A stretch of DNA of 64,000 nucleotides from Yuukianura sp. NJ FZ-2021 (GCA_046563655.1 JAJCTO010000010.1:1116001-1180000); one strand, 5' to 3'; counted from the stretch's first letter, positions 13,869-64,000 are shown. The notes: generated by a model not told the origin, from the sequence alone. Translations and numbers: made by a program.

Positions 13869-14043
13869 CGTCAACAAACACCAATTGAATTTCACACAAT
13901 TTTAGTTCGTATTTTTTCCTTAAAATTTCTTTAAATTTGTTCCCTGAAGAAGGACATAGATCATTGTCCGAAAGCTTGGATCTTTTTGAGTAAAGATTTA
14001 AAAGTTAAAACATCAACTGGCGATATTCCGATCTAAAATGCAA
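13735..14043 (+). repeat. 3' pseudo-LTR of the PLE
   Basis: Imperfect direct repeat of 11076-11387. Confidence 0.9.
13941..13980 (+). ncRNA. Minimal type I hammerhead ribozyme motif (3' pLTR)
   Basis: Same motif, with GAAAGCTT instead of GAAAGCTC at the predicted cleavage nucleotide. Confidence 0.75.
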
Positions 14044-40203: not shown

Positions 40204-40405
40204 GACGAATCACTGCTGTTTTCATTTTCATTTTCAAACTATTCATTTTATCTTTGTTTTTATCCTAACTTTTAAACGATAATACTAAGTAAGTTACCTT
40301 TACTCAACATTAATATTTGTTAAACTCTGTATCAATTTTCTGCAAGAAGCGTAACAACCTGCATGCAGGACGCTTCCCGAGATTAAAGAATTGAAAGAAT
40401 TGAAT
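39069..40405 (+). mobile_element. 5'-truncated non-LTR retrotransposon (CR1/L2-group-like LINE), copy 1
   Basis: RT motifs TVDKDILLQKL, VPQGSVLGPLLF, YADD, LLGL. The 3' end is a short GAATT-type repeat tail. TSD TGCTAC at 39063-39068 and 40406-40411. The clade assignment is tentative. Confidence 0.88.
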
Positions 40406-42182
40406 TGCTACAAGCGGCAGCTCTGACTGACATACAAACTTATAGTAGCCACCATAGCCTCCATGAGAAGGAGCAAAGAGATATTTTGAAAGCAATCTTG
40501 TACTAGAGAACGGTGTGATCAACAAAATGTGTAATGTCTACTCATTTTCGAAAATTTGTTGAATTAGAAACGGGGTGATGAACTGCTCAGCACTCTTTTC
40601 TGTTATCGTCGTAGGAAGATTATCGGTACAACGTATTTTACCACAGAGCAATCCCCGCTGCTACAAGTGGCAGCTCTGAATGACATGCAAACTTATAGTA
40701 GCCAACATAGCGTCCATGAGAAGGAGCAAACAGATATTTTGAAAGCAATCTTGTACTAGAGAACGGTGTGATCAACAAAATGTGTAATTTCTACTCATTT
40801 TCGAAAATTTGTTGAATTAGAAACGGGGTGATGAACTGCTCGGCACTCTTTTCTGTTATCGTCGAGGGAAGATTATCGGTTCAACGTATTTTACCACAGA
40901 GAAATCCCCGCTGCTACAAGCGGCAGCTCTGACTGACATACAAACTTATAGTAGCCACCATAGCCTCCATGAGAAGGAGCAAACAGATATTTTGAAAGCA
41001 TTCTAGTACTAGAGAACGGTGTGATCAACAAAATGTGTAATGTCTACTCATTTTCGAAAATTTGTTGAAATAGAAACGGGGTGATGAACTGCTCGGCACT
41101 CTTTTCTGTTATCGTCGAAGGAAGATTATCGGTACAACGTATTTTACCACAGAGAAATCCCCGCTGCTACAAGTGGCAGGTCTGACTGATATCCAAATTT
41201 ATAGTAGCCACCATAGCCTCCATGAGAAGGAGCAAGCAGATACTTTGAAAGCAATCTGGTACTAGAGAACGGTGTGATCAACAAAATGTGTAATGTCTAC
41301 TCATTTTCGAAAATTTGTTGAATTAGAAACGGGGTGATGAACTGCTCAGCACTCTTTTCTGTTATCGTCGTGGGAAGATTATCGGTACAACGTATTTTAC
41401 CACAGATAAATCCCCGCTGCTACAAGTGGCAGCTCTGAATGACATGCAAACTTATAGTAGCCACCATAGCGTCCATGAGAAGGAGCAAACAGATATTTTG
41501 AAAGCAATCTTGTACTAGAGAACGGTGTGATCAACAAAATGTGTAATTTCTACTCATTTTCGAAAATTTGTTGAATTAGAAACGGGGTGATGAACTGCTC
41601 GGCACTCTTTCCTGTTATCGTCGATGCAAGATTATCGGTACAACGTATTTTACCACAGAGAAATCCCCGCTGCTACAAGCGGCAGCTCTGACTGACATAC
41701 AAATTTATAGTAGCCACCATATCCTTCATGAGAAGGAGCAAACAGATATTTTGAAAGCAATCTTGTACTAGACAACGGTGTGATTAACAAAATGTGTAAT
41801 GTCTACTCATTTTCGAAAATTTGTTGAATTAGAAACGGGGTGATGAACTGCTCAGCACTCTTTTCTGTTATCGTCGTAGGAAGATTATCGGTACAACGTA
41901 TTTTACCACAGAGAAATCCCCGCTGCTACAAGTGGCAGCTCTGAATGACATGCAAACTTATAGTAGCCAACATAGCGTCCATGAGAAGGAGCAAACAGAT
42001 ATTTTGAAAGCAATCTTGTACTAGAGAACGGTGTGATCAACAAAATGTGTAATTTCTACTCATTTTCGAAAATTTGTTGAATTAGAAACGGGGTGATGAA
42101 CTGCTCGGCACTCTTTTCTGTTATCGTCGAGGGAAGATTATCGGTTCAACGTATTTTACCACAGAGAAATCCCCGCTGCTAC

Positions 42183-43521
42183 CGTCGACAAAGACATTCT
42201 TCTCCAACAGTTACGGTGGTACAATATTGATTCAGACTGGTTTGAATCATATCTTGGCCATCGTCACCAACAAGTCAAATTAGGGTTACAATTTTCAAAA
42301 ATTTAACCAACAATTTTGTCTGTTCCACAGGGTTCTGTTCTTGGACCTCTTCTGTTCAACATCATGATAAATGATCTGCCACTTGCAGTACGGCACTCAA
42401 TAACGATTCTCTACGCTGATGACACTACACTCATCATTTCTGGACCACCAAGTCTACTTCAAGATCTCTTAAAGAAACTGGAAGATGACATCACTTCAAT
42501 TGTAGAGTGGATGACACAGAACCGTCTCAAAATCAACCCCGATAAAACGCAATTCATCATAATTGGGAAACCGGGTATTTTGAAAAGCATTGGAGTAACC
42601 GAGATCAAAGTTGGAAACTCAACAATCAAAAACTTACCACATATCAAGTTGCTAGGCCTTTTCCTTGACCAGTCCTTGACATGGGTCACACATATCGACG
42701 CAACTGTAAAAAGAGGCAATGCAGCGCTTTGGAACTTACTACCTCTTCAACATTTCCTTGATGCGCACAACCGGAAAATCTTGGTGACATCATACGTAAT
42801 CCCAATTCTCAAATACATGCTTGTCATCTTCAGTCAGTCCCAAAAATCCAAACTAAAGAAAGTGAATAACCATTAAAGAAGATGTGCTAGATTTGTTTTG
42901 AATCTTTCAAAGTGGGATAGCATCACATCACAAATTACCAACCTCGGCTGGTTGCCTCTTAACGCTATGGCAGCATATGAAACGCTAAGCTGCTACCTCA
43001 CCATTCTCAGATCAAGAAACTCATTCTTTGACAGCATGATCGACTCAATTGAAAATGCCACACTTCAACCGAAGTCAACTCGACGCCGCCATTACTTCCC
43101 AATTTGCCCGAATTTTCATAAAAAGTCACTCATTCAAACGGTTGCCCGTATAACAAGTGAATTACCTCCCGAATTAGACCTCAAAACTGTTAAAAGGTTT
43201 AAGCTTTTTGACCATTTCCTGAATACCCATGTAACATCACATTTTAATGATTTTACTATTAATGACGATAATGTTTGCAATCTGTCTTGCATTGATGCTG
43301 TTGTAGGTTATGTTTAGGGACGAATCACTGCTGTTTTCATTTTCATTTTCAAACTATTCATTTTTATCTTTGTTTTTATCCTAACTTTTAAACGGTAATA
43401 CTAAGTAAGTTACTTTAACTCAACATTAATATTTGTTAAACTCTGTATCAATTTTCTGCAAGAAGCGTAACAACCTGCACGCAGGACGCTTCCCGAGATT
43501 AAAGAATTGAAAGAATTGAAT
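42183..43521 (+). mobile_element. 5'-truncated LINE, copy 2 (same truncation point and target site; two premature stops)
   Basis: Same junctions as copy 1, 3114 bp downstream. TSD TGCTAC at 42177-42182 and 43522-43527. TAA stops at ~42304 and ~42874. Confidence 0.88.
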
Positions 43522-46500
43522 TGCTACAAGCGGCAGCTCTGACTGACATACAAACTTATAGTAGCCACCATAGCCTCCATGAGAAGGAGCAAAGAGATAT
43601 TTTGAAAGCAATCTTGTACTAGAGAACGGTGTGATCAACAAAATGTGTAATGTCTACTCATTTTCGAAAATTTGTTGAATTAGAAACGGGGTGATGAACT
43701 GCTCAGCACTCTTTTCTGTTATCGTCGTAGGAAGATTATCGGTACAACGTATTTTACCACAGAGCAATCCCCGCTGCTACAAGTGGCAGCTCTGAATGAC
43801 ATGCAAACTTATAGTAGCCAACATAGCGTCCATGAGAAGGAGCAAACAGATATTTTGAAAGCAATCTTGTACTAGAGAACGGTGTGATCAACAAAATGTG
43901 TAATTTCTACTCATTTTCGAAAATTTGTTGAATTAGAAACGGGGTGATGAACTGCTCGGCACTCTTTTCTGTTATCGTCGAGGGAAGATTATCGGTTCAA
44001 CGTATTTTACCACAGAGAAATCCCCGCTGCTACAAGCGGCAGCTCTGACTGACATACAAACTTATAGTAGCCACCATAGCCTCCATGAGAAGGAGCAAAC
44101 AGATATTTTGAAAGCATTCTAGTACTAGAGAACGGTGTGATCAACAAAATGTGTAATGTCTACTCATTTTCGAAAATTTGTTGAAATAGAAACGGGGTGA
44201 TGAACTGCTCGGCACTCTTTTCTGTTATCGTCGAAGGAAGATTATCGGTACAACGTATTTTACCAAAGAAAAATAACCGCTGCTACAAGTGGCAGCTCTC
44301 ACTGACATACAAACTTATTGTAGCCACCATAGCCTCCATGAGAAGGAGCAAACAGATATTTTGAAAGCATTCTAGTACAAGAGGACGGTGTGATCAACAA
44401 AATGTGTAATTTTTACTCATTTTCGAAAATTTGTTAATTTAGTTGCTTGGTTATGAACTGCTTGGCACTCTTTTCTGTTATCCTCGAAGGAAGATTATCG
44501 GTACAACGTATTTTACCACAGAGAAACCCCGCTGCTACAAGTATCAAGTCTGACTGATATCCAAATTTATAGTAGCCACCATAGCCTCCATGAGAAGGAG
44601 CAAGCAGATACTTTGAAAGCAATCTGGTACTAGAGAACGGTGTGATCAACAAAATGTGTAATGTCTACTCATTTTCGAAAATTTGTTGAATTAGAAACGG
44701 GGTGATGAACTGCTCAGCACTCTTTTCTGTTATCGTCGTAGGAAGATTATCGGTACAACGTATTTTACCACAGATAAATCCCCGCTGCTACAAGTGGCAG
44801 CTCTGAATGACATGCAAACTTATAGTAGCCACCATAGCGTCCATGAGAAGGAGCAAACAGATATTTTGAAAGCAATCTTGTACTAGAGAACGGTGTGATC
44901 AACAAAATGTGTAATTTCTACTCATTTTCGAAAATTTGTTGAATTAGAAACGGGGTGATGAACTGCTCGGCACTCTTTCCTGTTATCGTCGATGCAAGAT
45001 TATCGGTACAACGTATTTTACCACAGAGAAATCCCCGCTGCTACAAGTGGCAGCTCTGAATGACATGCAAACTTATAGTAGCCACCATATCCTTCATGAG
45101 AAGGAGCAAACAGATATTTTGAAAGCAATCTTGTACTAGACAACGGTGTGATTAACAAAATGTGTAATGTCTACTCATTTTCGAAAATTTGTTGAATTAT
45201 AAACGGGGTTATGAACTGCTCGGCACTCTTTCCTGTTATCGTCGATGGAAGATTATCTGTACAACGTATTTTACCACAGAGAAATCCCCGCTGCTACAAG
45301 TGGCAGCTCTGACTGACATACAAATTTATAGTAGCCACCATAGCCTCCGTGAGAAGGAGCAAACAGATATTTTGAAAGCAATCTTGTACAATAGAACGGT
45401 GTGATCAACATAATGTGTAATTTCTACTCATTTTCGAAAATTTGTTGATTTAGAAACGGGGTGATGAACTGCTCGGCACTCTTTTCTGTTATCGTCGAAG
45501 GAAGATTATCGGTACAACGTATTTTACCACAGAGAAATCCCCGCTGCTACAAGTGGCAGCTCTGACTGACATACAAATTTATAGTAGCCACCATAGCCTC
45601 CATGAGAAGGAGCAAACAGATATTTTGAAAGCATTCTTGTACAAGAGAACGGTGTGATTAACAAAATGTGTAATTTCTACTCATTTTCGAAAATTTCTTG
45701 AATTAGAAACGGGGTGATGAACTGCTCGGCACTCTTTTCTGTTATCGTCGAAGGAAGATTATCGGTACAACGTATTTTACCACAGAGAAATCCCCGCTGC
45801 TACAAGTGGCAGGTCTGACTGATATCCAAATTTATAGTAGCCACCATAGCCTCCATGAGAAGGAGCAAGCAGATACTTTGAAAGCAATCCTGTACTAGAG
45901 AACGGTGTGATCAACAAAATGTGTAATTTCTACTCATTTTCGAAAATTTGTTGAATTAGAAACGGGGTTATGAACTGCTCGGCACTCTTTCCTGTTATCG
46001 TCGATGGAAGATTATCTGTACAACGTATTTTACCACAGAGAAATCCCCGCTGCTACAAGTGGCAGCTCTGACTGACATACAAACTTATAGTAGCCACAAT
46101 AGCCTCCACGAGAAGGAGCAAACAGATATTTTGAAAGCAATCTTGTACAATAGAACGGTGTGATCAACATAATGTGTAATTTCTACTCATTTTCGAAAAT
46201 TTGTTGATTTAGAAACGGGGTGATGAACTGCTCGGCACTCTTTTCTGTTATCGTCGAAGGAAGATTATCGGTACAACGTATTTTACCACAGAGAAATCCC
46301 CGCTGCTACAAGTGGCAGCTCTGACTGACATACAAATTTATAGTAGCCACCATAGCCTCCATGAGAAGGAGCAAACAGATATTTTGAAAGCATTCTTGTA
46401 CAAGAGAACGGTGTGATTAACAAAATGTGTAATTTCTACTCATTTTCGAAAATTTGTTGAATTAGAAACGGGGTGATGAACTGCTCGGCACTCTTTTCTG

Positions 46501-47192
46501 TTATCGTCGAAGGAAGATTATCGGTACAACGTATTTTACCACAGAGAAATCCCCGCTGCTACAAGTGGCAGGTCTGACTGATATCCAAATTTATAGTAGC
46601 CACCATAGCCTCCATGAGAAGGAGCAAGCAGATACTTTGAAAGCAATCTGGTACTAGAGAACGGTGTGATCAACAAAATGTGTAATGTCTACTCATTTTC
46701 GAAAATTTGTTGAATTAGAAACGGGGTGATGAACTGATCAGCACTCTTTTCTGTTATCGTCGTAGGAATATTATCGGTACAACGTATTTTACCACAGAGA
46801 AATCCCCGCTGCTACTAGTGGCAGCTCTGACTGACATACAAATTTATAGTAGCCACCATAGCCTCCATGAGAAGGAGCAAACAGATATTTTGAAAGCATT
46901 CTAGTACAAGAGAACGGTGTGATCAACAAAATGTGTAATTTCTACTCATTTTCGAAAATTTGTTGAATTAGAAACGGGATGATGAACTGCTCGGCACTCT
47001 TTTCTGTTATCGTCGAAGGAAGATTATCGGTACAACGTATTTTACCAAAGAGAAATAACCGCTGCTACAAGTGGCAGCTCTGACTGACATACAAACTTAT
47101 TGTAGCCACCATAGCCTGCATGAGAAGGAGCAAAGAGATATTTTGAAAGCAATCTTGTACTAGAGAACGGTGTGATTAACAAAATGTGTAAT

Positions 47193-48339
47193 AGCTAATG
47201 GGAGTGGTAGAGAAACGCCCGGGTTTTCAAAATGGCCGCCGTCCTTATCAGCTATTGCATCTGCATAAGACGTTTTTTGCTCATGCGCAAAAAACGTTTT
47301 TTTGCGCATGACGTCATCACCCACTTCCGCACCCCCTAACCCCCCCCCCACTATATATCCCTCCCCCCTATATCCCCCCCCACGTGACCCCCAAGTCACG
47401 TGCCCCCTCCCCCAAACCACGAAATTGAAATTTTTTTTAAAAAAAATCAATTTTTGACAATTTTTGAAAAAAAAATCAATTTTGAAAAAAAATCATTTTT
47501 TGAAAAAAAATTTTTCCTGAAATTTAGAAATTGGAAAATGTATTGAAACTTGGAAATTGAAATCAAAACTCAAGGTAAATTTCCCCAAATTACCCCAACT
47601 TGAAATGTCAAGGTCACGCCAATTTTTTCAAGGTCATGCGCGCCCTTTGCATTGGCATATGCATTTGTGTCAAGGTCATGCGCGCCCATTTGCAATTTCA
47701 TATAAATTTGTTCAAGGTCATTTCAATTTTTTTTCAAGGTCAAGCGAGCATTTTGAAATTGAAATGTCCCGGGAGCCCTTTTCTGGGTTCCCGGGACCAA
47801 GAAGATCAAGGATGGTGCATGGGCGGTACATTCGGCTGGTCAGAGGATTAGTGGGGTGCCACTCGGCCACTGCCAAAACAAACCGCAAACCACTTCCGGT
47901 TAGCCTGCCAAAGCAAACCGCAAACCACTTCCGGTCAACTTGCCCGCGCATATGCACGTACAAATCCATTTGAATTTTCACTTGGTTTGCAAAACAACAT
48001 TAAGGTCAAAGGTCAAACCGAGTGACGCGTCAGTGCTACACGCGTCACAATAGACTTGTCACTACGCTCGGGGGCGTGGCTAGCCGCCCGACTCTTGAGC
48101 CAATCTACGTTGAGCATTTCAAAAGTGGGCGTGGCTCGAGGAAATGGAGACATTTGATTGGTCGAGACTTGCCGCTACACTCGGGGGGTGTGGCCAACTG
48201 TGGCCAATGTGCGTTTACCATTTCAAAATGGGGCGTGACCTCAGAAAATGGAGACATTTGATTGGTCGACAAGACGCGAGCCCACAATATAGTGATGCCA
48301 TTTCCGGCTTAAACACAGACAAGTCGCCCGGGCGGACTG
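47193..48339 (+). repeat. Left TIR of element 2 (~1147 bp)
   Basis: Reverse-complement similarity to 52228-53352 from the terminus to AAGTCGCCCGGGCGGACTG, with many substitutions and indels. Confidence 0.92.
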
Positions 48340-48841
48340 GTCAGAGCCTCCACTTGGATTACATCTGATGGTAGGATCCGTGAGTTCGATTCAATCTGCC
48401 CCCAAAAAATTTTTATGTTGTTCAAGCGTTTTCGGAACAATACAAACGCAGGCTTGGCGTTTATCACTGGCGTGCCGGAATTACTTACGCTTACAACACT
48501 ATGTTAAATTATATTACGGAAACGTGTTTGCAGAAAAGCGTACGGCATAAACCTGACTTTGAACAACCGTATAAAACATAACCGGCAATTTGTGCCACCA
48601 CCAACAGCTTTGCAGAAAACCAAAAACTGAATACAGTTTTTGTTTTTTTGTTCTTTTTTTCGCTTTTTTTTTGGTTTATATTTTTTTGTTTTTTTTTAGT
48701 TTTTTTTTCGTTTTTTAATTTTATTTATAAAAGACACAATGTTTTTTTAACGAAGAGATTAGTTTATTTTTCAAATTTTAAAAAATTTACAAGAAAAAAG
48801 ACTTGAGACAGGGCTAATGAAGATTAAAAATAAAGTTATTT

Positions 48842-50154
48842 TTAAAAGAATATTTTTTTGTTGGATGCAAGTCCAGTAATTCTATTTCCATCAATTTGTA
48901 AAGTTTCGTCTTCGATTCCGACGATGAGAACCACCAAATCCTTTGTGGTCGGGGTTTCAAAATCAATTTCCAATCCGTATTGTCCAGATCTGGTCGCATT
49001 GTACCCGTCAGTCCACAAATCCTGGACGTCAAATGCAAAGATTGCATTTCCGTTTACAAACTTGTCGTAGGAAATGTCATTTCCTTCAGTCTGACGAGAA
49101 ACCAACTTGCACAAATTGTGATAGGCAAGCATGTAATTTTTGTCTTTGAAAATCATTTCTTGATAGACCAACGGTTTTTGCTCAAATTTTAGCAACATAC
49201 GGGTAACACCGTGGGGTTTAAAGTTGAATGGTGACTTTTCAACTTTTTTCCCTTCGTAAACTTCTAGTTCCAAAATGCCAACTAAAAGAAGTTTTGGGTG
49301 CATAGTACTGTGGTAGGCATTTGTCAAATCAACCGAACTGAGATTTTTCGACACGTATTCTAAACGCATGTGGGCCTGATCGTATGAATAGTTGGCCACT
49401 TTGTTTTTTGCAAACCCTTGCCGGATCTGAGTCACTATTTTTTCGCTGGGATTCACTTGGCGAATATAATACTCGGCCGATTCGACTGTAATTTTGTATT
49501 TGGTGGTAGTGGCCGGTCCTCGTAAGCAAAAGGATGCATCGCTCTTTTTAATTTCAAAATAGAATTGAGTGTTGTGCGGGAATAACTTTTTGGTAGTAAA
49601 TAGGCCGACAAACGGGCGCCCAATCATTTCAAACGTTTGACTATTTTTTGCCAAGTTTAATCGCGCCTTGTAACTCGGGTTTGTGTCGTCGTAGGTGTCC
49701 ATGACATCTCCGGCATAATAACCCACTTTTGACAATGTGCTGCATTTGGTTCCAATGCCGTTAAAGAGTTGAGTGAGCATCCAGGCTTCATACGAGTATG
49801 CTCGGTATCCTTGAGCAACTACTTGGCAATTGTTGACCAAAACTTTGAAGTCGTCAATGAACGCATGAAAAAATAAATTTTCAGGCGCAATTTGGTCTGC
49901 ATCGGTGAGTGGAGTTCCATCACTTTTTCTAATTGAAAACACTAGTTTTAAAAAAGAATCGGACAGGTCCAAGTACAAGTAACTGGCTGTTCCACTCGAA
50001 AGTAGATTGGATTAGGGTCTGTCGATGGTGAAAAGGGTTTCACTACTAGATAATTGCCCAAAATGAACGACACATCCGTGGTTGGCTTTGAAAACAAGTC
50101 AAATTTGGCACTTGTGGTGACCAATTTCGAATTCACTGGCACATTAACCTCCAT
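48842..50154 (-). pseudogene. Polinton/Maverick-type major capsid protein, ~437 aa, with one frameshift near 49980
   Basis: ATG at 50154 (MEVNVPVNSKLVTTSAKFDLFSKPTT...NPIYF, in ORF 49948..50223) continues in another frame as YLDLSDSF... (ORF 48842..49978). Collinear end to end with the element 1 MCP; both end KIFF/KIIFFK. Confidence 0.87.
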
Positions 50155-50325
50155 TTTAGCACAAAAACACGCACGAGATGTTGCTTTGACGGTTTCCAAA
50201 TGACGATTGAGCACTATTTTCAAGGGTTAAGATGTAAATTTCGGGGTAGCACTGAGCACTAGACACGTGTTTACTCGTCGAAATGCAAACGCAGACTGAC
50301 TAATAGTTGTGAAATAGGCTCCCTT

Positions 50326-50697
50326 TTATAGCTTTTTGGGCCAAATTTTGCAATTTTGCAACAATTTTACGCCTTTTTCGCCCACTTTTGGCAGATTTTT
50401 CTGGTTTTCTGCTATTGTCTTTAGAAATTTGCATTTTTCTGCAATTGTTGCAAAGATTTCTGTACTGCTGGACCCATTTTTGGGTAAATTTTGCTTCAAA
50501 TTTGACACTTTTTTGGGCCGCGATCGCTTTCTGACCTTCTTTTTGGGCAATTCCGCGGACATTTTTTGAACAATAGCGGGCGATGCTATTGTTTTTGTGG
50601 CTAAACTTGCATTGTCGCACTTGTTTTCGCCAATTTCTGGCGTCAAACTGCCACTATTGTTGCTAAAATCAGAGTTTTCTGGTTCGTCAACTTCCAT
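50326..50697 (-). CDS. Small Lys-rich protein with NLS-like PKKKVRKR (123 aa from the ATG at 50697)
   Basis: Open frame between the minor and major capsid genes. It shares its ~40-nt upstream leader and first codons with the MCP gene. Function unknown. Confidence 0.5.
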   Translation of the reverse strand: MEVDEPENSDFSNNSGSLTPEIGENKCDNASLATKTIASPAIVQKMSAELPKKKVRKRSRPKKVSNLKQNLPKNGSSSTEIFATIAEKCKFLKTIAENQKNLPKVGEKGVKLLQNCKIWPKKL

Positions 50698-50883
50698 TTT
50701 CACACAAAAAACGCACGAGATGTTGCTTCGACGACGACAAATTCGATACTGACGACGTTTTTAAGAATTTTGTGGTAAATTTTGCACAATTTTGCACTGT
50801 TTTCGTGTTGCTTGGTCGCAAGTCAAACGTCAACTGAACAGATTTTGTCTTTTGTGGCCTGTAATAACTGTTTTTTTGAGGAT

Positions 50884-51954
50884 TTAGGTGGATTTTCTGA
50901 CGTGAAGGATTAGTTGGGTTGAGCTGTGTGCTTCAGGAATTGGTGCAAGGCTTTCGTCCAAAAGTTGAACGTAAATGGAATTAATCATCGACTGCCTTCT
51001 TACCGCAAAATAACGCGGTACATTGACTTGCAAGTCGAAAGGTTTGCCATCCTGGCCGAGTTGGCGGAAGACTCCAATCAAGGGCAGAACTTTTTCTCCA
51101 AACTGGGTATAGTCGTCAAGATCGCACACGACAAGGAGATGTTTTGACGTCACTCCAAGGTCAATTTCGGCCTTGGCTGGACTCGTTTGGCTAAATCCTT
51201 TGAATGCGGCTCCCAGTGGCAGTCCAAATATTTTGTCTAAAAGCGGTGAGAAGGTTGTAATGTAATTGTGTGCAGATTCTCGAGTGTATGCGAGTACAGC
51301 CTCTTCCTCAGAGTACTTGAATGTAATTTGGAATGGAGCCAAGGCGGCGTTCATGGCTTGAATCAGTCCGTCAACCGTCTTTTCTTTTGGTTCTACTACG
51401 GTTGCCAAGTTGACCTTGTCTTGGAAAATGTGGAGCGTCATGTTAATTGTTGGATCAATTGCGTCAAAAATGGCTTCGGTATATTCATGGCCATGCGTCA
51501 CTCCATTTGGAAACGTGTTGGTATCAAACCCAAAGGCTCGGGCATACCCGGCTGTCATGGTAACCACATGGTCCTTTTCGTCGTTGGTAAGTGAAAACAC
51601 CTGGTTTGTGTATGAAATGAGAATTTTTCGGTCCAATTTTTTCAATTCCTTGTTGACATGACTGAAAAACTTCATAATTCCATCCATTTTTAAGATTGTA
51701 ACCGTCACCTCCAGGTGCTCGGTCACATTAATGACATTGTCGCCGTAGCTGTGGCCAAAAATGTTGCGCTGAACCTTTGGCGCAGGAGTATAGCACATTC
51801 CAACAATGGCAACCTCAAGTGGTTGTGTCAAGCCTTCAAGCTCTGGATCCAAATTGGCACGAAACTCGTTTGGTTTATTGCCAGGGTAAAAGCTACTGTT
51901 TAAAGCACTATCCACGATAATGTATTGTGCTGTGGGTTTTGTAATCGTGACCAT
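50884..51954 (-). CDS. Polinton/Maverick-type minor capsid (penton-like, PX) protein, 356 aa, intact
   Basis: N-terminus YIIVDS..S..YPGNKPNEFRANL...LEVAIVGMCY and C-terminus LLVVCDL...FGEKVLPLI...PRYFAV...INSIYVQLLDE...LILHVRK match the Maverick penton pattern (.LPSNSS..FP.N....F...L...WEV.L.E..Y / YVYCD....VGD...PLL...P.Y.PV......I.I.I.D......LHFR) around a variable middle. Confidence 0.8.
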   Translation of the reverse strand: MVTITKPTAQYIIVDSALNSSFYPGNKPNEFRANLDPELEGLTQPLEVAIVGMCYTPAPKVQRNIFGHSYGDNVINVTEHLEVTVTILKMDGIMKFFSHVNKELKKLDRKILISYTNQVFSLTNDEKDHVVTMTAGYARAFGFDTNTFPNGVTHGHEYTEAIFDAIDPTINMTLHIFQDKVNLATVVEPKEKTVDGLIQAMNAALAPFQITFKYSEEEAVLAYTRESAHNYITTFSPLLDKIFGLPLGAAFKGFSQTSPAKAEIDLGVTSKHLLVVCDLDDYTQFGEKVLPLIGVFRQLGQDGKPFDLQVNVPRYFAVRRQSMINSIYVQLLDESLAPIPEAHSSTQLILHVRKST

Positions 51955-52077
51955 TGTGCACGTAGATGCAAACTCGGTAAAAAGTGTAAAAAAAAAGAAA
52001 GAGTAAACTGAAACACTTTCACTTAAACACTTGCTTCAAGTAGAAGGTGATGTAGACCTCACGGAAGGTAGTGAAAC

Positions 52078-52132
52078 ACTGAGCCGTTTGCGGCAACTTT
52101 ACGGTCTTATATAGGCGCAACCGATGACGTCA
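52078..52132 (-). promoter_or_regulatory. Putative Pol II core promoter of the minor capsid gene (CRE + TATA + Inr)
   Basis: On the minus strand: TGACGTCA (52132-52125), TATATAA (52113-52107) and TCAGT (52082-52078) ~31 nt after the TATA start; the ATG is at 51954. Confidence 0.55.
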
Positions 52133-52227
52133 CCGTAAAAAAATGCAGGCGTCGCGTGGCAAGGCGTGCACATGAGGCAGTCGCAATCTCACCTCCGACA
52201 CGTAAACGAGACCGTTTTGTGTATAAG

Positions 52228-53352
52228 CAGTCCGCCCGGGCGACTTGTCTGTGTTTAAGCAGTAAATGGCAATACTATATTGTGGGCTCGCGTCTTGTCG
52301 ACCAACCAAATGTCTCCATTTTCTGAGGTCACGCCCTATTTTGAAATGGTAAACGCACATTGGCCACAGTTGGCCACACCCCCGAGTGTAGCGGCAAGTC
52401 TCGACCAATCAAATTGCTCCACTTCCTCGAGCCACGCCCACTTTTGAAATGCTCAAGGCTGATTGGCTCAAGAGTCGGTCGACTAGCCACGCCCCCGAGC
52501 TTTCGCCCCCGACAATTCCATTTGGCCTTTGACCTTGATGTTTTTGGCAAACGCAAGTGAAAGTTCAAATGGAATTGTACGTGCATGTGCACGGGCAGGG
52601 TGACCGGAAGTGGTTTGCGGTTTCTTTTGGCAGGCTAACCGGAAGTGGTTTGCGGTTTGTTTTGGCAGTGCCGAGTGGCACCCCACTAATCCTATGACCA
52701 GCCGAATGTACCGCCCATGCACCATACTTGATCCCCTTGGTCCCGGGAACCCAGAAAAGGGCTCCCGGGACTTGACAATTTCAAAATGCTCGCTTGACCT
52801 TGAAAAAAAAAATTGAAATGACCTTGAACAAATTTATATGAAATTGCAAATGGGCGCGCATGACCTTAAACAAATGCATATGCCAATGCAAAGGGCGCGC
52901 ATGAAAAAAAATGGCGTGACCTTGAAAAATTCGGCGTGACCTTGAAATTTGGGGTTGGGGTAATCTGGGGTAATTTACTTAAAATTTTTGGCAGCCATTT
53001 TAATTTCCAAGTTTCAAAAAATTTTCCAATTTCCAAATTTCAGAAATTTTTTTTTTCAAAAATTGTTTTTTTTTCAAAAAATGTTTTTTTAGATAATTTT
53101 TTAAAAATAAGTTTCAATTTGTGGTTTGGGGAGGGGGGGCACGTGACTCGGGGGTCACGTGGGGGGGGGGGGTGGATATAGGGGGGAGGGATATATAGTG
53201 GGGGGTATGGGGGGTGCGGAAGTGGGGGGGTGATGACGTCATATGCAAAACGTTTCTGCGCATGAGCAAAAACGTTTTGTGCAGATGCAATAGCTGATAA
53301 GGACGGCGGCCATTTTGAAAAAAGTCCTTTTCCCTTGCCACTGCCATTAGCT
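52228..53352 (-). repeat. Right TIR of element 2 (~1125 bp)
   Basis: Imperfect reverse complement of 47193-48339; the mirrored ORF-track peptides are similar but not identical. Confidence 0.92.
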
Positions 53353-56300
53353 GAGGTCATTCTGTCAATGAAAGTTCACATCATTAACAAATGCTACATG
53401 AGTCATAAAGGATCAAGAAAACTTACCCTGAAATAGACTTTTTAACAGAGAAAATTGAAAGCACTAGTATGGCATCTTACAAAAATTAAGCGTCAACTTA
53501 ACCCAGTGAGATAGATATCGTGACTTGCACGTTCCGAGGTCATTCTGTCAATGAAAGTTCATATCATTAACAAATGCTACATGAGTCCTCCTGGATGAAG
53601 AAAATTACCTCAAAATAGACTTTTTTAACGGAGAAAATTGAAAGCACTAATATGGCATCTTACAAAAATTAAGCGTCAACTTAACCCAGTGAGATAGATA
53701 TCGTGACTTGCACGTTCCGAGGTCATTCTGTCAATGAAAGTTCACATCATTAACAAATGCTACATGAGTCCTCCTGGATCAAGAAAACTTACCTCGAAAT
53801 AGACTTTTTAACATAGAAAATTGAAAGCACTAGTATGGCATCTTACAAAAATTAAGCGTCAACTTAACCCAGTGAGATAGATATCGTGACTTGCACGTTC
53901 CGAGGTCATTCTGTCAATGAAAGTTCACATCACTAACAAATGCTACATGAGTCCTCCTGGATCAAGAAAACTTACCTCGAAATAGACTCTTTAATAGAGA
54001 AAATTGAAAGCACTAGTATGGCATCTTACAAAAATTAAGCGTCAACTTAACCCAGTGAGATAGATATCGTGACTTGCACGTTCCGAGGTCATGAAAGTTC
54101 ATATCATTAACAAATGCTACATGAGTCCTCCTGGATGAAGAAAAATTACCTCGAAATAGACTTTTTTAACGGAGAAAATTGAAAGCACTAATATGGCATC
54201 TTACAAAAATTTAGCATCAACTTAACCCAGTGAGATAGATATCGTGACTTGCACGTTCCGAGGTCATTCTGTCAATGAAAGTTCATATCACTAACAAACG
54301 CTACATGAGTCATAAAGGATCAAGAAAAATTACCTCGAAAAAGACTTTTTAACGGAGAAAATTGAAAGCACTAATATGGCATCTTTCAAAAATTAAGCGT
54401 CACCTTAACCCAGTGAGATAGATATCGTGACTTGCTCGTTCCGAGGTCATTCTGTCAATGAAAGTTCATATCATTAACAAATGCTACATGAGTCCTCCTG
54501 GATGAAGAAAAATTACCTCGAAATAGACTTTTTTAACGGAGAAAATTGAAAGCACTAATATGGCATCTTACAAAAATTAAGCGTCAACTTAACCCAGTGA
54601 GATAGATATCGTGACTTGCACGTTCCGAGGTCATTGTGTCAATGAAAGTTCACATCGTTAACAAATGCTACATGAGTCCTCCTGGATGAAGAAAAATTAC
54701 CTCGAAATAGACTTTTTAACAGAGAAAATTGAAAGCACTAGTATTGCATCTTACAAAAATTTAGCATCAACTTAACCCAGTGAGATAGATATCGTGACTT
54801 TTCCGAGGTCATTCTGTCAATGAAAGTTCACATCATTAACAAATGCTACATGAGTCATAAAGGATCAAGAAAACTTACCCTGAAATAGACTTTTTAACAG
54901 AGAAAATTGAAAGCACTAGTATGGCATCTTACAAAAATTAAGCGTCAACTTAACCCAGTGAGATAGATATCGTGACTTGCACGTTCCGAGGTCATTCTGT
55001 CAATGAAAGTTCATATCATTAACAAATGCTACATGAGTCCTCCTGGATGAAGAAAATTACCTCGAAATAGACTTTTTTAACGGAGAAAATTGAAAGCACT
55101 AATATGGCATCTTACAAAAATTAAGCGTCAACTTAACCCAGTGAGATAGATATCGTGACTTGCACGTTCCGAGGTCATTCTGTCAATGAAAGTTCACATC
55201 ATTAACAAATGCTACATGAGTCCTCCTGGATCAAGAAAACTTACCTCGAAATAGACTTTTTAACATAGAAATTTGAAAGCACTAGTATGGCATCTTACAA
55301 AAATTAAGCGTCAACTTAACCCAGTGAGATAGATATCGTGACTTGCACGTTCCGAGGTCATTCTGTCAATGAAAGTTCACATCACTAACAAATGCTACAT
55401 GAGTCCTCCTGGATCAAGAAAACTTACCTCGAAATAGACTCTTTAATAGAGAAAATTGAAAGCACTAGTATGGCATCTTACAAAAATTAAGCGTCAACTT
55501 AACCCAGTGAGATAGATATCGTGACTTGCACGTTCCGAGGTCATTCTGTCAATGAAAGTTCATATCATTAACAAATGCTACATGAGTCCTCCTGGATGAA
55601 AAAATTACCTCGAAATAGACTTTTTTAACGGAGAAAATTGAAAGCACTAATATGGCATCTTACAAAAATTAAGCGTCAACTTAACCCAGTGAGATAGATA
55701 TCGTGACTTGCACGTTCCGAGGTCATTCTGTCAATGAAAGTTCACATCATTAACAAATGCTACATGAGTCCTCCTGGATCAAGAAAACTTACCTCGAAAT
55801 AGACTTTTTAACATAGAAATTTGAAAGCACTAGTATGGCATCTTACAAAAATTAAGCGTCAACTTAACCCAGTGAGATAGATATCGTGACTTGCACGTTC
55901 CGAGGTCATTCTGTCAATGAAAGTTCACATCACTAACAAATGCTACATGAGTCCTCCTGGATCAAGAAAACTTACCTCGAAATAGACTCTTTAATAGAGA
56001 AAATTGAAAGCACTAGTATGGCATCTTACAAAAATTAAGCGTCAACTTAACCCAGTGAGATAGATATCGTGACTTGCACGTTCCGAGGTCATGAAAGTTC
56101 ATATCATTAACAAATGCTACATGAGTCCTCCTGGATGAAGAAAAATTACCTCGAAATAGACTTTTTTAACGGAGAAAATTGAAAGCACTAATATGGCATC
56201 TTACAAAAATTTAGCATCAACTTAACCCAGTGAGATAGATATCGTGACTTGCACGTTCCGAGGTCATTCTGTCAATGAAAGTTCATATCATTAACAAACG

Positions 56301-59300
56301 CTACATGAGTCATAAAGGATCAAGAAAAATTACCTCGAAAAAGACTTTTTTAACGGAGAAAATTGAAAGCACTAATATGGCATCTTTCAAAAATTAAGCG
56401 TCACCTTAACCCAGTGAGATAGATATCGTGACTTGCTCGTTCCGAGGTCATTCTGTCAATGAAAGTTCATATCATTAACAAATGCTACATGAGTCCTCCT
56501 GGATGAAGAAAAATTACCTCGAAATAGACTTTTTTAACGGAGAAAATTGAAAGCACTAATATGGCATCTTACAAAAATTAAGCGTCAACTTAACCCAGTG
56601 AGATAGATATCGTGACTTGCACGTTCCGAGGTCATTGTGTCAATGAAAGTTCACATCGTTAACAAATGCTACATGAGTCCTCCTGGATGAAGAAAAATTA
56701 CCTCGAAATAGACTTTTTAACAGAGAAAATTGAAAGCACTAGTATTGCATCTTACAAAAATTTAGCATCAACTTAACCCAGTGAGATAGATATCGTGACT
56801 TTTCCGAGGTCATTCTGTCAATGAAAGTTCACATCATTAACAAATGCTACATGAGTCATAAAGGATCAAGAAAACTTACCCTGAAATAGACTTTTTAACA
56901 GAGAAAATTGAAAGCACTAGTATGGCATCTTACAAAAATTAAGCGTCAACTTAACCCAGTGAGATAGATATCGTGACTTGCACGTTCCGAGGTCATTCTG
57001 TCAATGAAAGTTCATATCATTAACAAATGCTACATGAGTCCTCCTGGATGAAGAAAATTACCTCGAAATAGACTTTTTTAACGGAGAAAATTGAAAGCAC
57101 TAATATGGCATCTTACAAAAATTAAGCGTCAACTTAACCCAGTGAGATAGATATCGTGACTTGCACGTTCCGAGGTCATTCTGTCAATGAAAGTTCACAT
57201 CATTAACAAATGCTACATGAGTCCTCCTGGATCAAGAAAACTTACCTCGAAATAGACTTTTTAACATAGAAAATTGAAAGCACTAGTATGGCATCTTACA
57301 AAAATTAAGCGTCAACTTAACCCAGTGAGATAGATATCGTGACTTGCACGTTCCGAGGTCATTCTGTCAATGAAAGTTCACATCACTAACAAATGCTACA
57401 TGAGTCCTCCTGGATCAAGAAAACTTACCTCGAAATAGACTCTTTAATAGAGAAAATTGAAAGCACTAGTATGGCATCTTACAAAAATTAAGCGTCAACT
57501 TAACCCAGTGAGATAGATATCGTGACTTGCACGTTCCGAGGTCATTCTGTCAATGAAAGTTCATATCATTAACAAATGCTACATGAGTCCTCCTGGATCA
57601 AGAAAACTTACCTCGAAATAGACTCTTTAATAGAGAAAATTGAAAGCACTAGTAGGGCATCTTTCAAAAATTAAGCGTCAACTTAACCCAGTGAGATAGA
57701 TATCGTGACTTGCACGTTCCGAGGTCATTCTGTCAATGAAAGTGTCACATCTTTAACAAATGCTACATGAGTCCTCCTGGATCAAGAAAACTTACCTCGA
57801 AATAGACTTTTTAACAGAGAAAATTGAAAGTACTGGTATGGCATCTTACAAAAATTAAGCGTCAACTTAACCCAGTGAGATAGATATCGTGACTTGCACG
57901 TTCCGAGGTCATTCTGTCAATGAAAGTTCACATCATTAACAAATGCTACATGAGTCCTCCTGGATCAAGAAAAATTACCTCGAAATAGACTTTTTTAACG
58001 GAGAAAATTGAAAGCACTAATATGGCATCTTACAAAAATTTAGCATCAACTTAACCCAGTGAGATAGATATCGTGACTTGCACGTTCCGAGGTCATTCTG
58101 TCAATGAAAGTTCATATCATTAACAAACGCTACATGAGTCATAAAGGATCAAGAAAAATTACCTCGAAAAAGACTTTTTTAACGGAGAAAATTGAAAGCA
58201 CTAATATGGCATCTTTCAAAAATTAAGCGTCAACTTAACCCAGTGAGATAGATATCGTGACTTGCTCGTTCCGAGGTCATTCTGTCAATGAAAGTTCATA
58301 TCATTAACAAATGCTACATGAGTCCTCCTGGATGAAGAAAAATTACCTCGAAATAGACTTTTTTAACGGAGAAAATTGAAAGCACTAATATGGCATCTTA
58401 CAAAAATTAAGCGTCAACTTAACCCAGTGAGATAGATATCGTGACTTGCACGTTCCGAGGTCATTCTGTCAATGAAAGTTCACATCATTAACAAATGCTA
58501 CATGAGTCCTCCTGGATCAGGAAAACTTACCTCGAAATAGACTTTTTAACATAGAAAATTGAAAGCACTAGTATGGCATCTTACAAAAATTAAGCGTCAA
58601 CTTAACCCAGTGAGATAGATATCGTGACTTGCACGTTCCGAGGTCATTCTGTCAATGAAAGTTCATATCATTAACAAATGCTACATGAGTCCTCCTGGAT
58701 CAAGAAAACTTACCTCGAAATAGACTCTTTAATAGAGAAAATTGAAAGCACTAGTATGGCATCTTTCAAAAATTAAGCGTCAACTTAACCCAGTGAGATA
58801 GATATCGTGACTTGCACGTTCCGAGGTCATTCTGTCAATGAAAGTTCACATCACTAACAAATGCTACATGAGTCCTCCTGGATCAAGAAAACTTACCTCG
58901 AAATAGACTCTTTAATAGAGAAAATTGAAAGCACTAGTATGGCATCTTACAAAAATTAAGCGTCAACTTAACCCAGTGAGATAGATATCGTGACTTGCAC
59001 GTTCCGAGGTCATTCTGTCAATGAAAGTTCATATCATTAACAAATGCTACATGAGTCCTCCCGGATGAAGAAAAATTACCTCGAAATAGACTTTTTTAAC
59101 GGAGAAAATTGAAAGCACTAATATGGCATCTTTCAAAAATTAAGCGTCAACTTAACCCAGTGAGATAGATATCGTGACTTGCTCGTTCCGAAGTCATTCT
59201 GTCAATGAAAGTGTCACATCTTTAACAAATGCTACATGAGTCCTCCTGGATCAAGAAAACTTACCTCGAAATAGACTTTTTAACATAGAAAATTGAAAGC

Positions 59301-62300
59301 ACTAGTATGGCATCTTACAAAAATTAAGCGTCAACTTAACCCAGTGAGATAGATATCGTGACTTGCACGTTCCGAGGTCATTCTGTCAATGAAAGTTCAC
59401 ATCACTAACAAATGCTACATGAGTCCTCCTGGATCAAGAAAACTTACCTCGAAATAGACTCTTTAATAGAGAAAATTGAAAGCACTAGTATGGCATCTTA
59501 CAAAAATTAAGCGTCAACTTAACCCAGTGAGATAGATATCGTGACTTGCACGTTCCGAGGTCATTCTGTCAATGAAAGTTCATATCATTAACAAATGCTA
59601 CATGAGTCCTCCTGGATCAAGAAAACTTACCTCGAAATAGACTCTTTAATAGAGAAAATTGAAAGCACTAGTATGGCATCTTTCAAAAATTAAGCGTCAA
59701 CTTAACCCAGTGAGATAGATATCGTGACTTGCACGTTCCGAGGTCATTCTGTCAATGAAAGTTCACATCACTAACAAATGCTACATGAGTCCTCCTGGAT
59801 CAAGAAAACTTACCTCGAAATAGACTCTTTAATAGAGAAAATTGAAAGCACTAGTATGGCATCTTACAAAAATTAAGCGTCAACTTAACCCAGTGAGATA
59901 GATATCGTGACTTGCACGTTCCGAGGTCATTCTGTCAATGAAAGTTCATATCATTAACAAATGCTACATGAGTCCTCCCGGATGAAGAAAAATTACCTCG
60001 AAATAGACTTTTTTAACGGAGAAAATTGAAAGCACTAATATGGCATCTTTCAAAAATTAAGCGTCAACTTAACCCAGTGAGATAGATATCGTGACTTGCT
60101 CGTTCCGAGGTCATTCTGTCAATGAAAGTGTCACATCTTTAACAAATGCTACATGAGTCCTCCTGGATCAAGAAAACTTACCTCGAAATAGACTTTTTAA
60201 CAGAGAAAATTGAAAGTACTAGTATGGCATCTTACAAAAATTAAGCGTCAACTTAACCCAGTGAGATAGATATCGTGACTTGCACGTTCCGAGGTCATTC
60301 TGTCAATGAAAGTTCACATCACTAACAAATGCTACATGAGTCCTCCTGGATCAAGAAAACTTACCTCGAAATAGACTCTTTAATAGAGAAAATTGAAAGC
60401 ACTAGTATGGCATCTTTCAAAAATTAAGCGTCAACTTAACCCAGTGAGATAGATATCGTGACTTGCACGTTCCGAGGTCATTCTGTCAATGAAAGTTCAC
60501 ATCACTAACAAATGCTACATGAGTCCTCCTGGATCAAGAAAACTTACCTCGAAATAGACTCTTTAATAGAGAAAATTGAAAGCACTAGTATGGCATCTTA
60601 CAAAAATTAAGCGTCAACTTAACCCAGTGAGATAGATATCGTGACTTGCACGTTCCGAGGTCATTCTGTCAATGAAAGTTCATATCATTAACAAATGCTA
60701 CATGAGTCCTCCCGGATGAAGAAAAATTACCTCGAAATAGACTTTTTTAACGGAGAAAATTGAAAGCACTAATATGGCATCTTTCAAAAATTAAGCGTCA
60801 ACTTAACCCAGTGAGATAGATATCGTGACTTGCTCGTTCCGAGGTCATTCTGTCAATGAAAGTGTCACATCTTTAACAAATGCTACATGAGTCCCCCTGG
60901 ATCAAGAAAACTTACCTCGAAATAGACTTTTTAACATAGAAAATTGAAAGCACTAGTATGGCATCTTACAAAAATTAAGCGTCAACTTAACCCAGTGAGA
61001 TAGATATCGTGACTTGCACGTTCCGAGGTCATTCTGTCAATGAAAGTTCACATCACTAACAAATGCTACATGAGTCCTCCTGGATCAAGAAAACTTACCT
61101 CGAAATAGACTCTTTAATAGAGAAAATTGAAAGCACTAGTATGGCATCTTACAAAAATTAAGCGTCAACTTAACCCAGTGAGATAGATATCGTGACTTGC
61201 ACGTTCCGAGGTCATTCTGTCAATGAAAGTTCATATCATTAACAAATGCTACATGAGTCCTCCCGGATGAAGAAAAATTACCTCGAAATAGACTTTTTTA
61301 ACGGAGAAAATTGAAAGCACTAATATGGCATCTTTCAAAAATTAAGCGTCAACTTAACCCAGTGAGATAGATATCGTGACTTGCTCGTTCCGAGGTCATT
61401 CTGTCAATGAAAGTGTCACATCTTTAACAAATGCTACATGAGTCCTCCTGGATCAAGAAAACTTACCTCGAAATAGACTTTTTAACAGAGAAAATTGAAA
61501 GTACTAGTATGGCATCTTACAAAAATTAAGCGTCAACTTAACCCAGTGAGATAGATATCGTGACTTGCACGTTCCGAGGTCATTCTGTCAATGAAAGTTC
61601 ACATCATTAACAAATGCTACATGAGTCCTCCTGGATCAAGAAAACTTACCTCGAAATAGACTTTTTAACATAGAAATTTGAAAGCACTAGTATGGCATCT
61701 TACAAAAATTAAGCGTCAACTTAACCCAGTGAGATAGATATCGTGACTTGCACGTTCCGAGGTCATTCTGTCAATGAAAGTTCACATCACTAACAAATGC
61801 TACATGAGTCCTCCTGGATCAAGAAAACTTACCTCGAAATAGACTCTTTAATAGAGAAAATTGAAAGCACTAGTATGGCATCTTACAAAAATTAAGCGTC
61901 AACTTAACCCAGTGAGATAGATATCGTGACTTGCACGTTCCGAGGTCATTCTGTCAATGAAAGTTCATATCATTAACAAATGCTACATGAGTCCTCCTGG
62001 ATCAAGAAAACTTACCTCGAAATAGACTCTTTAATAGAGAAAATTGAAAGCACTAGTATGGCATCTTTCAAAAATTAAGCGTCAACTTAACCCAGTGAGA
62101 TAGATATCGTGACTTGCACGTTCCGAGGTCATTCTGTCAATGAAAGTTCACATCACTAACAAATGCTACATGAGTCCTCCTGGATCAAGAAAACTTACCT
62201 CGAAATAGACTCTTTAATAGAGAAAATTGAAAGCACTAGTATGGCATCTTACAAAAATTAAGCGTCAACTTAACCCAGTGAGATAGATATCGTGACTTGC

Positions 62301-64000
62301 ACGTTCCGAGGTCATTCTGTCAATGAAAGTTCATATCATTAACAAATGCTACATGAGTCCTCCCGGATGAAGAAAAATTACCTCGAAATAGACTTTTTTA
62401 ACGGAGAAAATTGAAAGCACTAATATGGCATCTTTCAAAAATTAAGCGTCAACTTAACCCAGTGAGATAGATATCGTGACTTGCTCGTTCCGAGGTCATT
62501 CTGTCAATGAAAGTGTCACATTTTTAACAAATGCTACATGAGTCCTCCTGGATCAATAAAACTTACCTCGAAATAGACTTTTTAACATAGAAAATTGAAA
62601 GCACTAGTATGGCATCTTACAAAAATTAAGCGTCAACTTAACCCAGTGAGATAGATATCGTGACTTGCACGTTCCGAGGTCATTCTGTCAATGAAAGTTC
62701 ACATCACTAACAAATGCTACATGAGTCCTCCTGGATCAAGAAAACTTACCTCGAAATAGACTCTTTAATAGAGAAAATTGAAAGCACTAGTATGGCATCT
62801 TACAAAAATTAAGCGTCAACTTAACCCAGTGAGATAGATATCGTGACTTGCACGTTCCGAGGTCATTCTGTCAATGAAAGTTCATATCATTAACAAATGC
62901 TACATGAGTCCTCCTGGATCAAGAAAACTTACCTCGAAATAGACTCTTTAATAGAGAAAATTGAAAGCACTAGTATGGCATCTTTCAAAAATTAAGCGTC
63001 AACTTAACCCAGTGAGATAGATATCGTGACTTGCACGTTCCGAGGTCATTCTGTCAATGAAAGTTCACATCACTAACAAATGCTACATGAGTCCTCCTGG
63101 ATCAAGAAAACTTACCTCGAAATAGACTCTTTAATAGAGAAAATTGAAAGCACTAGTATGGCATCTTACAAAAATTAAGCGTCAACTTAACCCAGTGAGA
63201 TAGATATCGTGACTTGCACGTTCCGAGGTCATTCTGTCAATGAAAGTTCATATCATTAACAAATGCTACATGAGTCCTCCCGGATGAAGAAAAATTACCT
63301 CGAAATAGACTTTTTAACGGAGAAAATTGAAAGCACTAATATGGCATCTTTCAAAAATTAAGCGTCAACTTAACCCAGTGAGATAGATATCGTGACTTGC
63401 TCGTTCCGAGGTCATTCTGTCAATGAAAGTGTCACATCTTTAACAAATGCTACATGAGTCCTCCTGGATCAAGAAAACTTACCTCGAAATAGACTTTTTA
63501 ACAGAGAAAATTGAAAGTACTAGTATAGCATCTTACAAAAATTAAGCGTCAACTTAACCCAGTGAGATAGATATCGTGACTTGCACGTTCCGAGGTCATG
63601 AAAGTTCATATCATTAACAAATGCTACATGAGTCCTCCTGGATGAAGAAAAATTACCTCGAAATAGACTTTTTTAACGGAGAAAATTGAAAGCACTAATA
63701 TGGCATCTTACAAAAATTAAGCGTCAACTTAACCCAGTGAGATAGATATCGTGACTTGCACGTTCCGAGGTCATTCTGTCAATGAAAGTTCACATCATTA
63801 ATAAATGCTACATGAGTCCTCCTGGATCAAGAAGACTTACCTCGAAATAGACTTTTTAACATAGAAAATTGAAAGCACTAGTATGGCATCTTACAAAAAT
63901 TAAGCGTCAACTTAACCCAGTGAGATAGATATCGTGACTTGCACGTTCCGAGGTCATTCTGTCAATGAAAGTTCACATCACTAACAAATGCTACATGAGT
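53353..64000. repeat. Satellite B: tandem array of a ~183-bp monomer (~58 monomers, runs off the window end)
   Basis: GAGGTCATTCTGTC recurs at 53353, 53536, 53719 and 53902 (period 183). Small indel variants occur. No visible similarity to satellite A. Confidence 0.98.

Follow-up and report, generated by a model that had tools for sequence, protein, structure and literature searches.

By the definition given in the available text of PMC5499653, all Polintons encode pDNAP and an integrase, and in the accessible sections of PMC8097293 intact vertebrate Mavericks are described as 12.7-24.6 kb long, with terminal inverted repeats (TIRs) of 46-1447 bp, target-site duplications (TSDs) of 6 bp and end motifs of the AG../AGT.. 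kind, (AG)3/(AGT)2. For Alu and L1, recombination between copies of a transposable element (TE) has ample documentation, according to the portion of PMC8102501 available to us. Here, we analyzed a 64,000-nucleotide stretch from Yuukianura sp. NJ FZ-2021 (GCA_046563655.1, JAJCTO010000010.1:1116001-1180000), hereafter the window, in which a 6160-bp capsid-only Polinton/Maverick-like element, termed Element 2, joins two unrelated satellite arrays and lacks a TSD. The simplest reading is that Element 2 is a recombinant between one copy inserted in satellite A and another inserted in satellite B, to which we tentatively assign a probability of about 0.45.

The window consists of eukaryotic repeat DNA with two satellites identified by Tandem Repeats Finder (TRF), the 253-bp satellite A, which occupies four blocks (9738-11069, 14046-39068, 40406-42182 and 43522-47192), and the 183-bp satellite B. 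The features that meet at Element 2 are the following:

43522-47192, plus strand: last satellite A block, 253-bp monomer (TRF, 14.5 copies at 93%)
47187-47192, plus strand: left flanking 6-mer TGTAAT, satellite A (sequence reading)
47193-53352, genes on the minus strand: Element 2, capsid-only Polinton/Maverick-like, 6160 bp, termini AGCTAATGG.../...CCATTAGCT
53353-53358, plus strand: right flanking 6-mer, GAGGTC, with which satellite B begins (sequence reading)
53353-64000, plus strand: satellite B, 183-bp monomer, to the window end (TRF, 58.3 copies at 94%)

The first-pass annotation had described an element that bridges two unrelated satellite arrays without a TSD, and every part of that description was present in the assembled sequence, of which it is a property. 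Its coordinates, 47187-53358, took in both flanking 6-mers and were narrowed to 47193-53352. On the left, where the junction reads ...AACAAAATGTGTAAT/AGCTAATGGGAGTGG and the satellite side ends ...AAAATGTGTAAT, both reading and TRF placed the array end at 47192, exactly at the terminus as claimed; the array stops there inside a monomer, because other satellite A monomers continue with GTCTAC or TTCTAC after TGTAAT and not with AGCTAATGGGAGTGG. On the right, the junction reads ...CCACTGCCATTAGCT/GAGGTCATTCTGTC (the satellite B start is also given as GAGGTCATTC), and TRF likewise agreed that the 183-bp array starts exactly at the terminus, at 53353; before GAGGTC, other satellite B monomers carry ...CACGTTCC, not ...CCACTGCCATTAGCT. 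The terminal 9-mers of Element 2, AGCTAATGG and CCATTAGCT, are exact reverse complements and occur as element ends nowhere else in the window, where the sole other exact match to the terminal 9-mer is a chance match within the capsid gene of a second element, Element 1. The monomers adjoining Element 2 on both sides are 96-97% identical to their consensus, the same as in the array interior, and the first satellite B monomers are 96-99% identical to it. No similarity was detected by blastn between the two satellites (doubled consensus monomers, best E 0.93), nor between Element 2 and either satellite, which ruled out a derivation of the satellites from the element. Within the 64-kb window there was no second A/B boundary and no further end of the element.

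As had been noted, the two flanking 6-mers differ: TGTAAT and GAGGTC match at 0/6 positions, and a TSD of any length is impossible, since no suffix of TGTAAT equals a prefix of GAGGTC (the last base of the former is T, the first base of the latter G). These flanks weigh on the idea of an ordinary insertion, either at an old A/B boundary or within one array, whose TSD was later lost by mutation, deletion or turnover. The 7% divergence between the arms of Element 2 (its TIRs, described below) could reflect such age, and satellite arrays do turn over, but both flanks keep the register of the satellite they belong to right up to the terminus, it is improbable that a deletion would stop at precisely the terminal base, and unequal exchange leaves the monomer touching the element unchanged. 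The open penton frame of the element also speaks against great age in place. A decayed TSD is thus very improbable, the 0/6 match together with the satellite register of both flanks effectively excluding it.

That relatives of Element 2 make TSDs at all was a premise of the first-pass annotation, and it found support in Element 1, the sole relative in the window:

442-6244, plus strand: Element 1, 5803 bp, termini AGTCAATGG.../...CCATTGACT
442-1916 and 4770-6244: Element 1 TIRs, about 1475 bp, 99.6% identical
2088-2729: Element 1 basic open reading frame (ORF)
about 3181-4466: Element 1 major capsid protein (MCP) gene, one frameshift near 3925-3945
436-441 (left, plus strand) and 6245-6250 (right): Element 1 TSD, GGTGCC

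Element 1 sits in the reverse transcriptase (RT) region of a BEL/Pao pol gene (Pfam: Peptidase_A17, E 1.7e-50; DUF5641; integrase zinc finger). Its flanks read ...CCATTCGGTGCC/AGTCAATGG...CCATTGACT/GGTGCCATTCGG, and a single copy of GGTGCC restores the pol frame as SSAPFGAIRALNQLA, i.e., SSAPFGA/IRALNQLA, so that GGTGCC is a clean 6-bp TSD. A 6-bp TSD is therefore carried by one of the two window elements with readable flanks (1/2), Element 1 having it and Element 2 not. The MCP genes of the two elements are 64.5% identical at the nucleotide level, and their arms show no similarity by blastn.

Apart from Element 2, all three interruptions of satellite A (3/3, representing two independent events) carry a duplication, with the satellite resuming afterwards. 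The first is a 2.98-kb RT-encoding element at 11064-14043 with a 12-bp duplication, TCCAAATTTATA, an 840-codon open frame (RVT_1, E 2.6e-12) and 330-bp direct terminal repeats that are 90% identical, a structure that may be Penelope-like or that of a tandem long interspersed nuclear element (LINE). The others are two occurrences of a 5'-truncated LINE fragment (RVT_1, E 2.4e-17; 39069-40405 and 42183-43521) with a 5-6-bp duplication. The blocks of about 1.4 kb that hold this fragment and the same satellite A flanks (39036-40444 and 42150-43560) lie 3.1 kb apart and are 98.4% identical; they are copies produced by segmental duplication within satellite A after the LINE insertion, and satellite A therefore does undergo unequal exchange. 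Both satellites also display a higher-order periodicity (14046-39068 and 53353-64000), with monomers of 92-95% identity to the consensus recurring every few units among those of 96-99%.

Element 2 thus combines a complete element, non-matching flanks and the premise of a TSD-making family (n = 1 within the window, together with published Mavericks). Recombination between two insertions would account for this combination as follows. Maverick-type derivatives would integrate by a retrovirus-type integrase supplied in trans, leaving a 6-bp duplication. One copy would have integrated within the satellite A array and a second within the satellite B array, after which homologous exchange inside the copies would unite the first copy's left flank with the second copy's right flank. 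Had the two copies been direct repeats on the same chromosome, this would produce a deletion; in any other arrangement it would produce a translocation or inversion. What would be left is a single, structurally complete element that has exact termini but no duplication and is bordered by a different satellite at either end. Exact termini and interior-like monomers at both junctions are what is expected from two insertions followed by an internal exchange, and the element keeps a canonical layout, its arms being equal in length and its two capsid genes both present, which fits homologous exchange better than exchange by end joining. The recombinant interpretation put forward in the first-pass annotation is plausible and has partial support: the TSD premise, the exact termini, the interior-like junction monomers and the divergence of the arms came out in its favor, while the 64-kb window contains neither parental copies nor reciprocal junctions.

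Such an exchange has precedents. Exchange between long terminal repeat (LTR) retrotransposons leaves non-matching TSDs. The deletions mediated by Alu and L1 recombination, as presented in the available part of PMC8102501, resemble Element 2 in consisting of a complete element whose flanks come from different places and bear no matching duplication, and their accepted cause is homologous exchange between dispersed copies. They differ in that Element 2 is a Maverick derivative and its joined flanks are two satellite arrays, and in that the ancestral state of the human Alu and L1 cases is known from an outgroup genome, whereas Element 2 is read from one window. Exchange between transposon copies is therefore a known mechanism, to which Element 2 adds an instance and not a principle.

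The two arms of Element 2 provide a further line of evidence:

47193-48339, plus strand: left TIR, 1147 bp, five CAAGGTCA motifs at 47609-47742
52228-53352, minus strand: right TIR, 1125 bp, five CAAGGTCA motifs

By blastn the arms are 84.4% identical over 1185 columns, and their global alignment contains 1007 matches, 77 mismatches (77/1084, about 7%) and 32 gap events, 25 of which are not homopolymer length changes. The arms of Element 1 gave 1458 matches and only 6 mismatches (6/1464), in an alignment that is 4 bases off at the outer end and so includes one to three spurious gaps. We compared this divergence with the state of the genes. Neutral change of 3.55% per arm, applied to 2235 coding bases in 5000 simulations, introduced a mean of 2.98 new stops, with a probability of 0.044 of introducing none, and the indel rate of the arms predicts many frameshifts in the genes of Element 2, where one was observed and the penton gene is intact. 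These results suggest that the arms already differed when this copy was formed, as they would in a chimera of two copies.

The same data bear on a one-step aberrant insertion, in which either the two ends of a single linear genome entered two different target sites (non-concerted integration) or the linear DNA was captured by end joining between two broken chromosome ends. Non-concerted integration is known for retroviral integrases, and this explanation would accommodate the exact, complete termini on both sides, the canonical internal layout and the missing TSD. A single genome should, however, give near-identical arms, as in Element 1, and not the 77 mismatches and 32 gaps seen in Element 2 beside nearly intact genes, and end joining seldom keeps both ends to the base. 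The first of these objections is weakened by the metagenome contig L001, considered below, and we regard an aberrant insertion as quite unlikely.

A different concern is that the arrangement A-element-B is absent from the organism, the assembler having merged two real copies, one lying in A and the other in B, through their shared interior. We used five public sequencing runs from two studies, which contain 11-41% of the sampled words, in the form of Logan unitigs, with four of the runs compared in detail. These runs show an extreme abundance of both satellites and multiple copies of the Element 2 family; in run X1, summed word depth along Element 2 was about 250-2700, and 295 of 1221 contigs were at least 99% alike. 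Multiple copies of the family and flanks made of highly repeated satellites, the hardest sequence to assemble, are both circumstances in which a misjoin would arise, and no piece bridges 47192/47193 or 53352/53353 among the 32 of 2979 listed. The unitigs on Element 2 are short (about 150-400 bp) and those listed are a small part of the total, so this absence is uninformative either way. Loose ends at 47192 and 53353, among the 24 of 370 listed, represent the satellites continuing from other monomers. Set against a misjoin, the window contains no N and resolves 25-kb satellite arrays with nested insertions, which suggests long reads able to span 6.2 kb, and the arms stand 7% and 32 gap events apart, leaving only the 3.9-kb interior to be confused. 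On this balance a misjoin is unlikely but deserves serious consideration. Among the 40 of 519 base differences listed by depth, more fall in the left half of Element 2, from which we draw nothing.

The runs also reach beyond this sample. Run X4, labeled as a different organism (organism B) and belonging to another study, contains both satellites across 47000-53530, at summed word depths of 439 and 258, along with contigs of the Element 2 family, 18 of them at least 99% alike, 36 at 95-99% and 56 at 90-95%. The satellites and the Element 2 family are therefore shared beyond one sample.

Several further points count against recombination between two insertions, alongside the lack of any listed piece across a junction. 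The one relative behind the TSD premise, Element 1, belongs to a different family. Copies that differ by 7% would be expected to exchange inefficiently. The arms of L001 are 84-94% complementary beside an open MCP frame, and imperfect arms may therefore be normal for such elements; moreover, the arms of Element 2 abound in low-complexity runs, whose mutation rate exceeds that of coding DNA. Because of the L001 pattern and these runs, arm divergence is a hint only, and we downgraded it from a proof of a chimera. The wider meaning, a reorganization of centromeric domains, rests on one junction. A small share of probability goes to explanations outside the four considered here.

We then turned to what Element 2 encodes. 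Its 3.9-kb interior is filled by three minus-strand ORFs:

48845-50154, minus strand: MCP gene (double jelly-roll), about 437 codons, one frameshift, no in-frame stop in either piece
50326-50697, minus strand: small basic ORF, 123 aa from the first Met, isoelectric point (pI) 9.7, lysine plus arginine 20%
50884-51954, minus strand: penton (minor capsid) gene, 356 codons (ORF 50887-51954), intact

The main frame of the MCP gene (48842-50011) has 389 codons, and a 55-codon upstream piece lies in another frame. With the homologue P0001 as a tblastn query, the frameshift was placed between 49984 and 49993 (query residues 1-55 in frame -1, 58-437 in frame -3). The site is not in a homopolymer, which speaks against a homopolymer sequencing error; the frameshift in the Element 1 MCP gene, unlike this one, is at an A6 run. 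These sites say nothing firm about assembly quality. Six metagenome homologues of the Element 2 MCP, 436-444 aa long, were recovered with E values of 3e-99 to 1e-11 and without a Pfam family, and the Atlas lead was a cluster named "Double jelly roll-like domain". The structure was modeled with AlphaFold2 (AF2) for P0001 (45% identical, 9-row alignment) and not for the broken gene in the window. The model, with a pLDDT of 72.5, matched in Foldseek the MCPs of Singapore grouper iridovirus, Sputnik, mavirus and PBCV-1 (E 1e-14 to 1e-12, TM-score 0.54-0.63) and in BFVD a bracovirus-borne protein, adomavirus LO7, virophage and giant-virus (nucleocytoplasmic large DNA virus, NCLDV) capsids and an adintovirus protein. 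On the strength of this model, Element 2 is predicted to encode a double-jelly-roll MCP.

For the penton ORF, an exhaustive phmmer search returned 61 homologues where a word-indexed search gave 0. Its AF2 model (33 rows) reached a pLDDT of 92.1, and the top Foldseek matches were the mavirus penton (6g41, E 1.8e-8), the Sputnik penton and the adenovirus penton base, at low TM-scores of 0.27-0.40. The predicted fold thus identifies the product as a putative penton protein, a single jelly-roll minor capsid protein. No penton was detected in Element 1 with the A2 penton profile. The basic ORF matched no Pfam or PHROGs family, and nothing exceeded threshold in either database for the four Element 2 ORFs tested. 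Polymerase, integrase, protease and ATPase were not found in Element 2 (Pfam, four ORFs; not every small ORF was scanned), and in Element 1, where one ORF was scanned with Pfam, there was no match and no pPolB, integrase, protease or ATPase.

Two features of the Element 2 sequence stand apart from its coding content. A 46-bp direct repeat (50146-50191 and 50689-50733, 89% identical) spans the opening codons of both the MCP gene and the basic ORF, and both proteins start MEV(N/D)xPxNS, as though a single leader or promoter segment had undergone duplication. The motif CAAGGTCA occurs 13 times in the window against 2.3 expected, a number reached in none of 100 shuffles (0/100), and 12 of the 13 lie within Element 2, five in each arm (47609-47742 and 52530-52944). 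The sequence (T)CAAGGTCA serves monomeric nuclear receptors of the FTZ-F1/SF-1/ERR type as a half-site, and the arms may, to judge from these motifs, carry receptor-responsive promoters.

Ten metagenome loci encode relatives of the Element 2 MCP. At three of the ten (L004, L005 and L007), a distant MCP gene is followed by a weak match to an adenovirus-type protease, an rve integrase above the Pfam cut-off (E 2.8e-14 to 1.9e-16) and a penton homologue. The protease matches near the MCP relatives, to Peptidase_C5, scored 17.1-20.5 bits at these loci and at L008, below the cut-off of 21.3, and at L009 a pPolB-like ORF near the MCP relative fell just under the Pfam cut-off. Together, the neighbors at L004, L005, L007 and L009 make up the Polinton/Maverick gene set. 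A search of IMG/VR with an alignment of closer sequences yielded no relatives among 97 pattern matches.

L001 (L001:1-3944), a 3.9-kb metagenome contig cut inside the arms, has a small layout like that of Elements 1 and 2, with a basic 132-aa ORF (pI 10.5), an open MCP frame of 439 codons and inverted arms of at least 380 bp. Capsid-only elements therefore exist outside this genome. Between the MCP genes of these three small elements, the proportion of synonymous differences (pS) was 0.67-0.84, which is saturated, and that of nonsynonymous differences (pN) was 0.22-0.36. Since pN lies far below a saturated pS, the MCP gene was under constraint while the three elements diverged.

Element 2 is a non-autonomous, capsid-only, cut-down Polinton/Maverick derivative. 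It and Element 1 share with Polintons and Mavericks long TIRs (1.1 kb in Element 2, 1.5 kb in Element 1), a double-jelly-roll MCP, a 6-bp TSD in the case of Element 1, a penton in the case of Element 2, and distant MCP relatives linked to an rve integrase and to a sub-cut-off adenovirus-type protease and pPolB. Their ends, AGCTAATGG/CCATTAGCT and AGTCAATGG/CCATTGACT, are of the AG...CT/AGT...ACT type when compared with those in the accessible sections of PMC8097293. The two elements differ from Polintons and Mavericks in measuring only 5.8-6.2 kb and in that pPolB, integrase, protease and ATPase were not found in the ORFs scanned (four in Element 2, one in Element 1). Because polymerase and integrase are missing, we class both as derivatives and not as strict members.

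A second comparison is with satellite viruses and virophages, agents that have a capsid gene of their own but need a helper to replicate; virophages are genomes of 17-30 kb with ATPase and protease. The likeness lies in a gene content cut down to a basic protein and the components of the virion shell (the MCP, in Element 2 also the penton), and in an MCP gene that evolved under constraint among the three small elements; the difference is that Elements 1 and 2 are chromosomal copies, each with a frameshifted MCP gene, and are known from genes alone. A bolder proposal is that Elements 1, 2 and L001 form an undescribed, helper-dependent class of "satellite Mavericks" that fuse satellite arrays by acting as portable homology, Element 2 being an example caught in the act. 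Each such lineage, about 6 kb in size, would have propagated over a long time with only long inverted ends, a basic protein and a shell of its own (MCP with or without penton), and for polymerase and integrase it would depend on a helper Maverick, in the way that satellite viruses depend on helper viruses. The role as portable homology would follow from the multiple copies and their location in satellites. We regard this proposal in full as doubtful. Within the portions of the literature available to our search, we found neither a capsid-only Maverick derivative of about 6 kb nor a satellite fusion mediated by a Maverick, a result that falls short of proving absence.

Should the junction be real, a dispersed virus-like element provides the homology through which two unrelated satellite domains are joined, which would be one concrete way to reshuffle satellite or pericentromeric blocks. 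The capsid-only type of element is the more novel and more interesting lead than the junction. Such elements would bear on whether particles are formed by Mavericks in animals and on the origin of virophage-like parasitism; if the class is a true one, Maverick-like viruses would have capsid-encoding dependants of their own.

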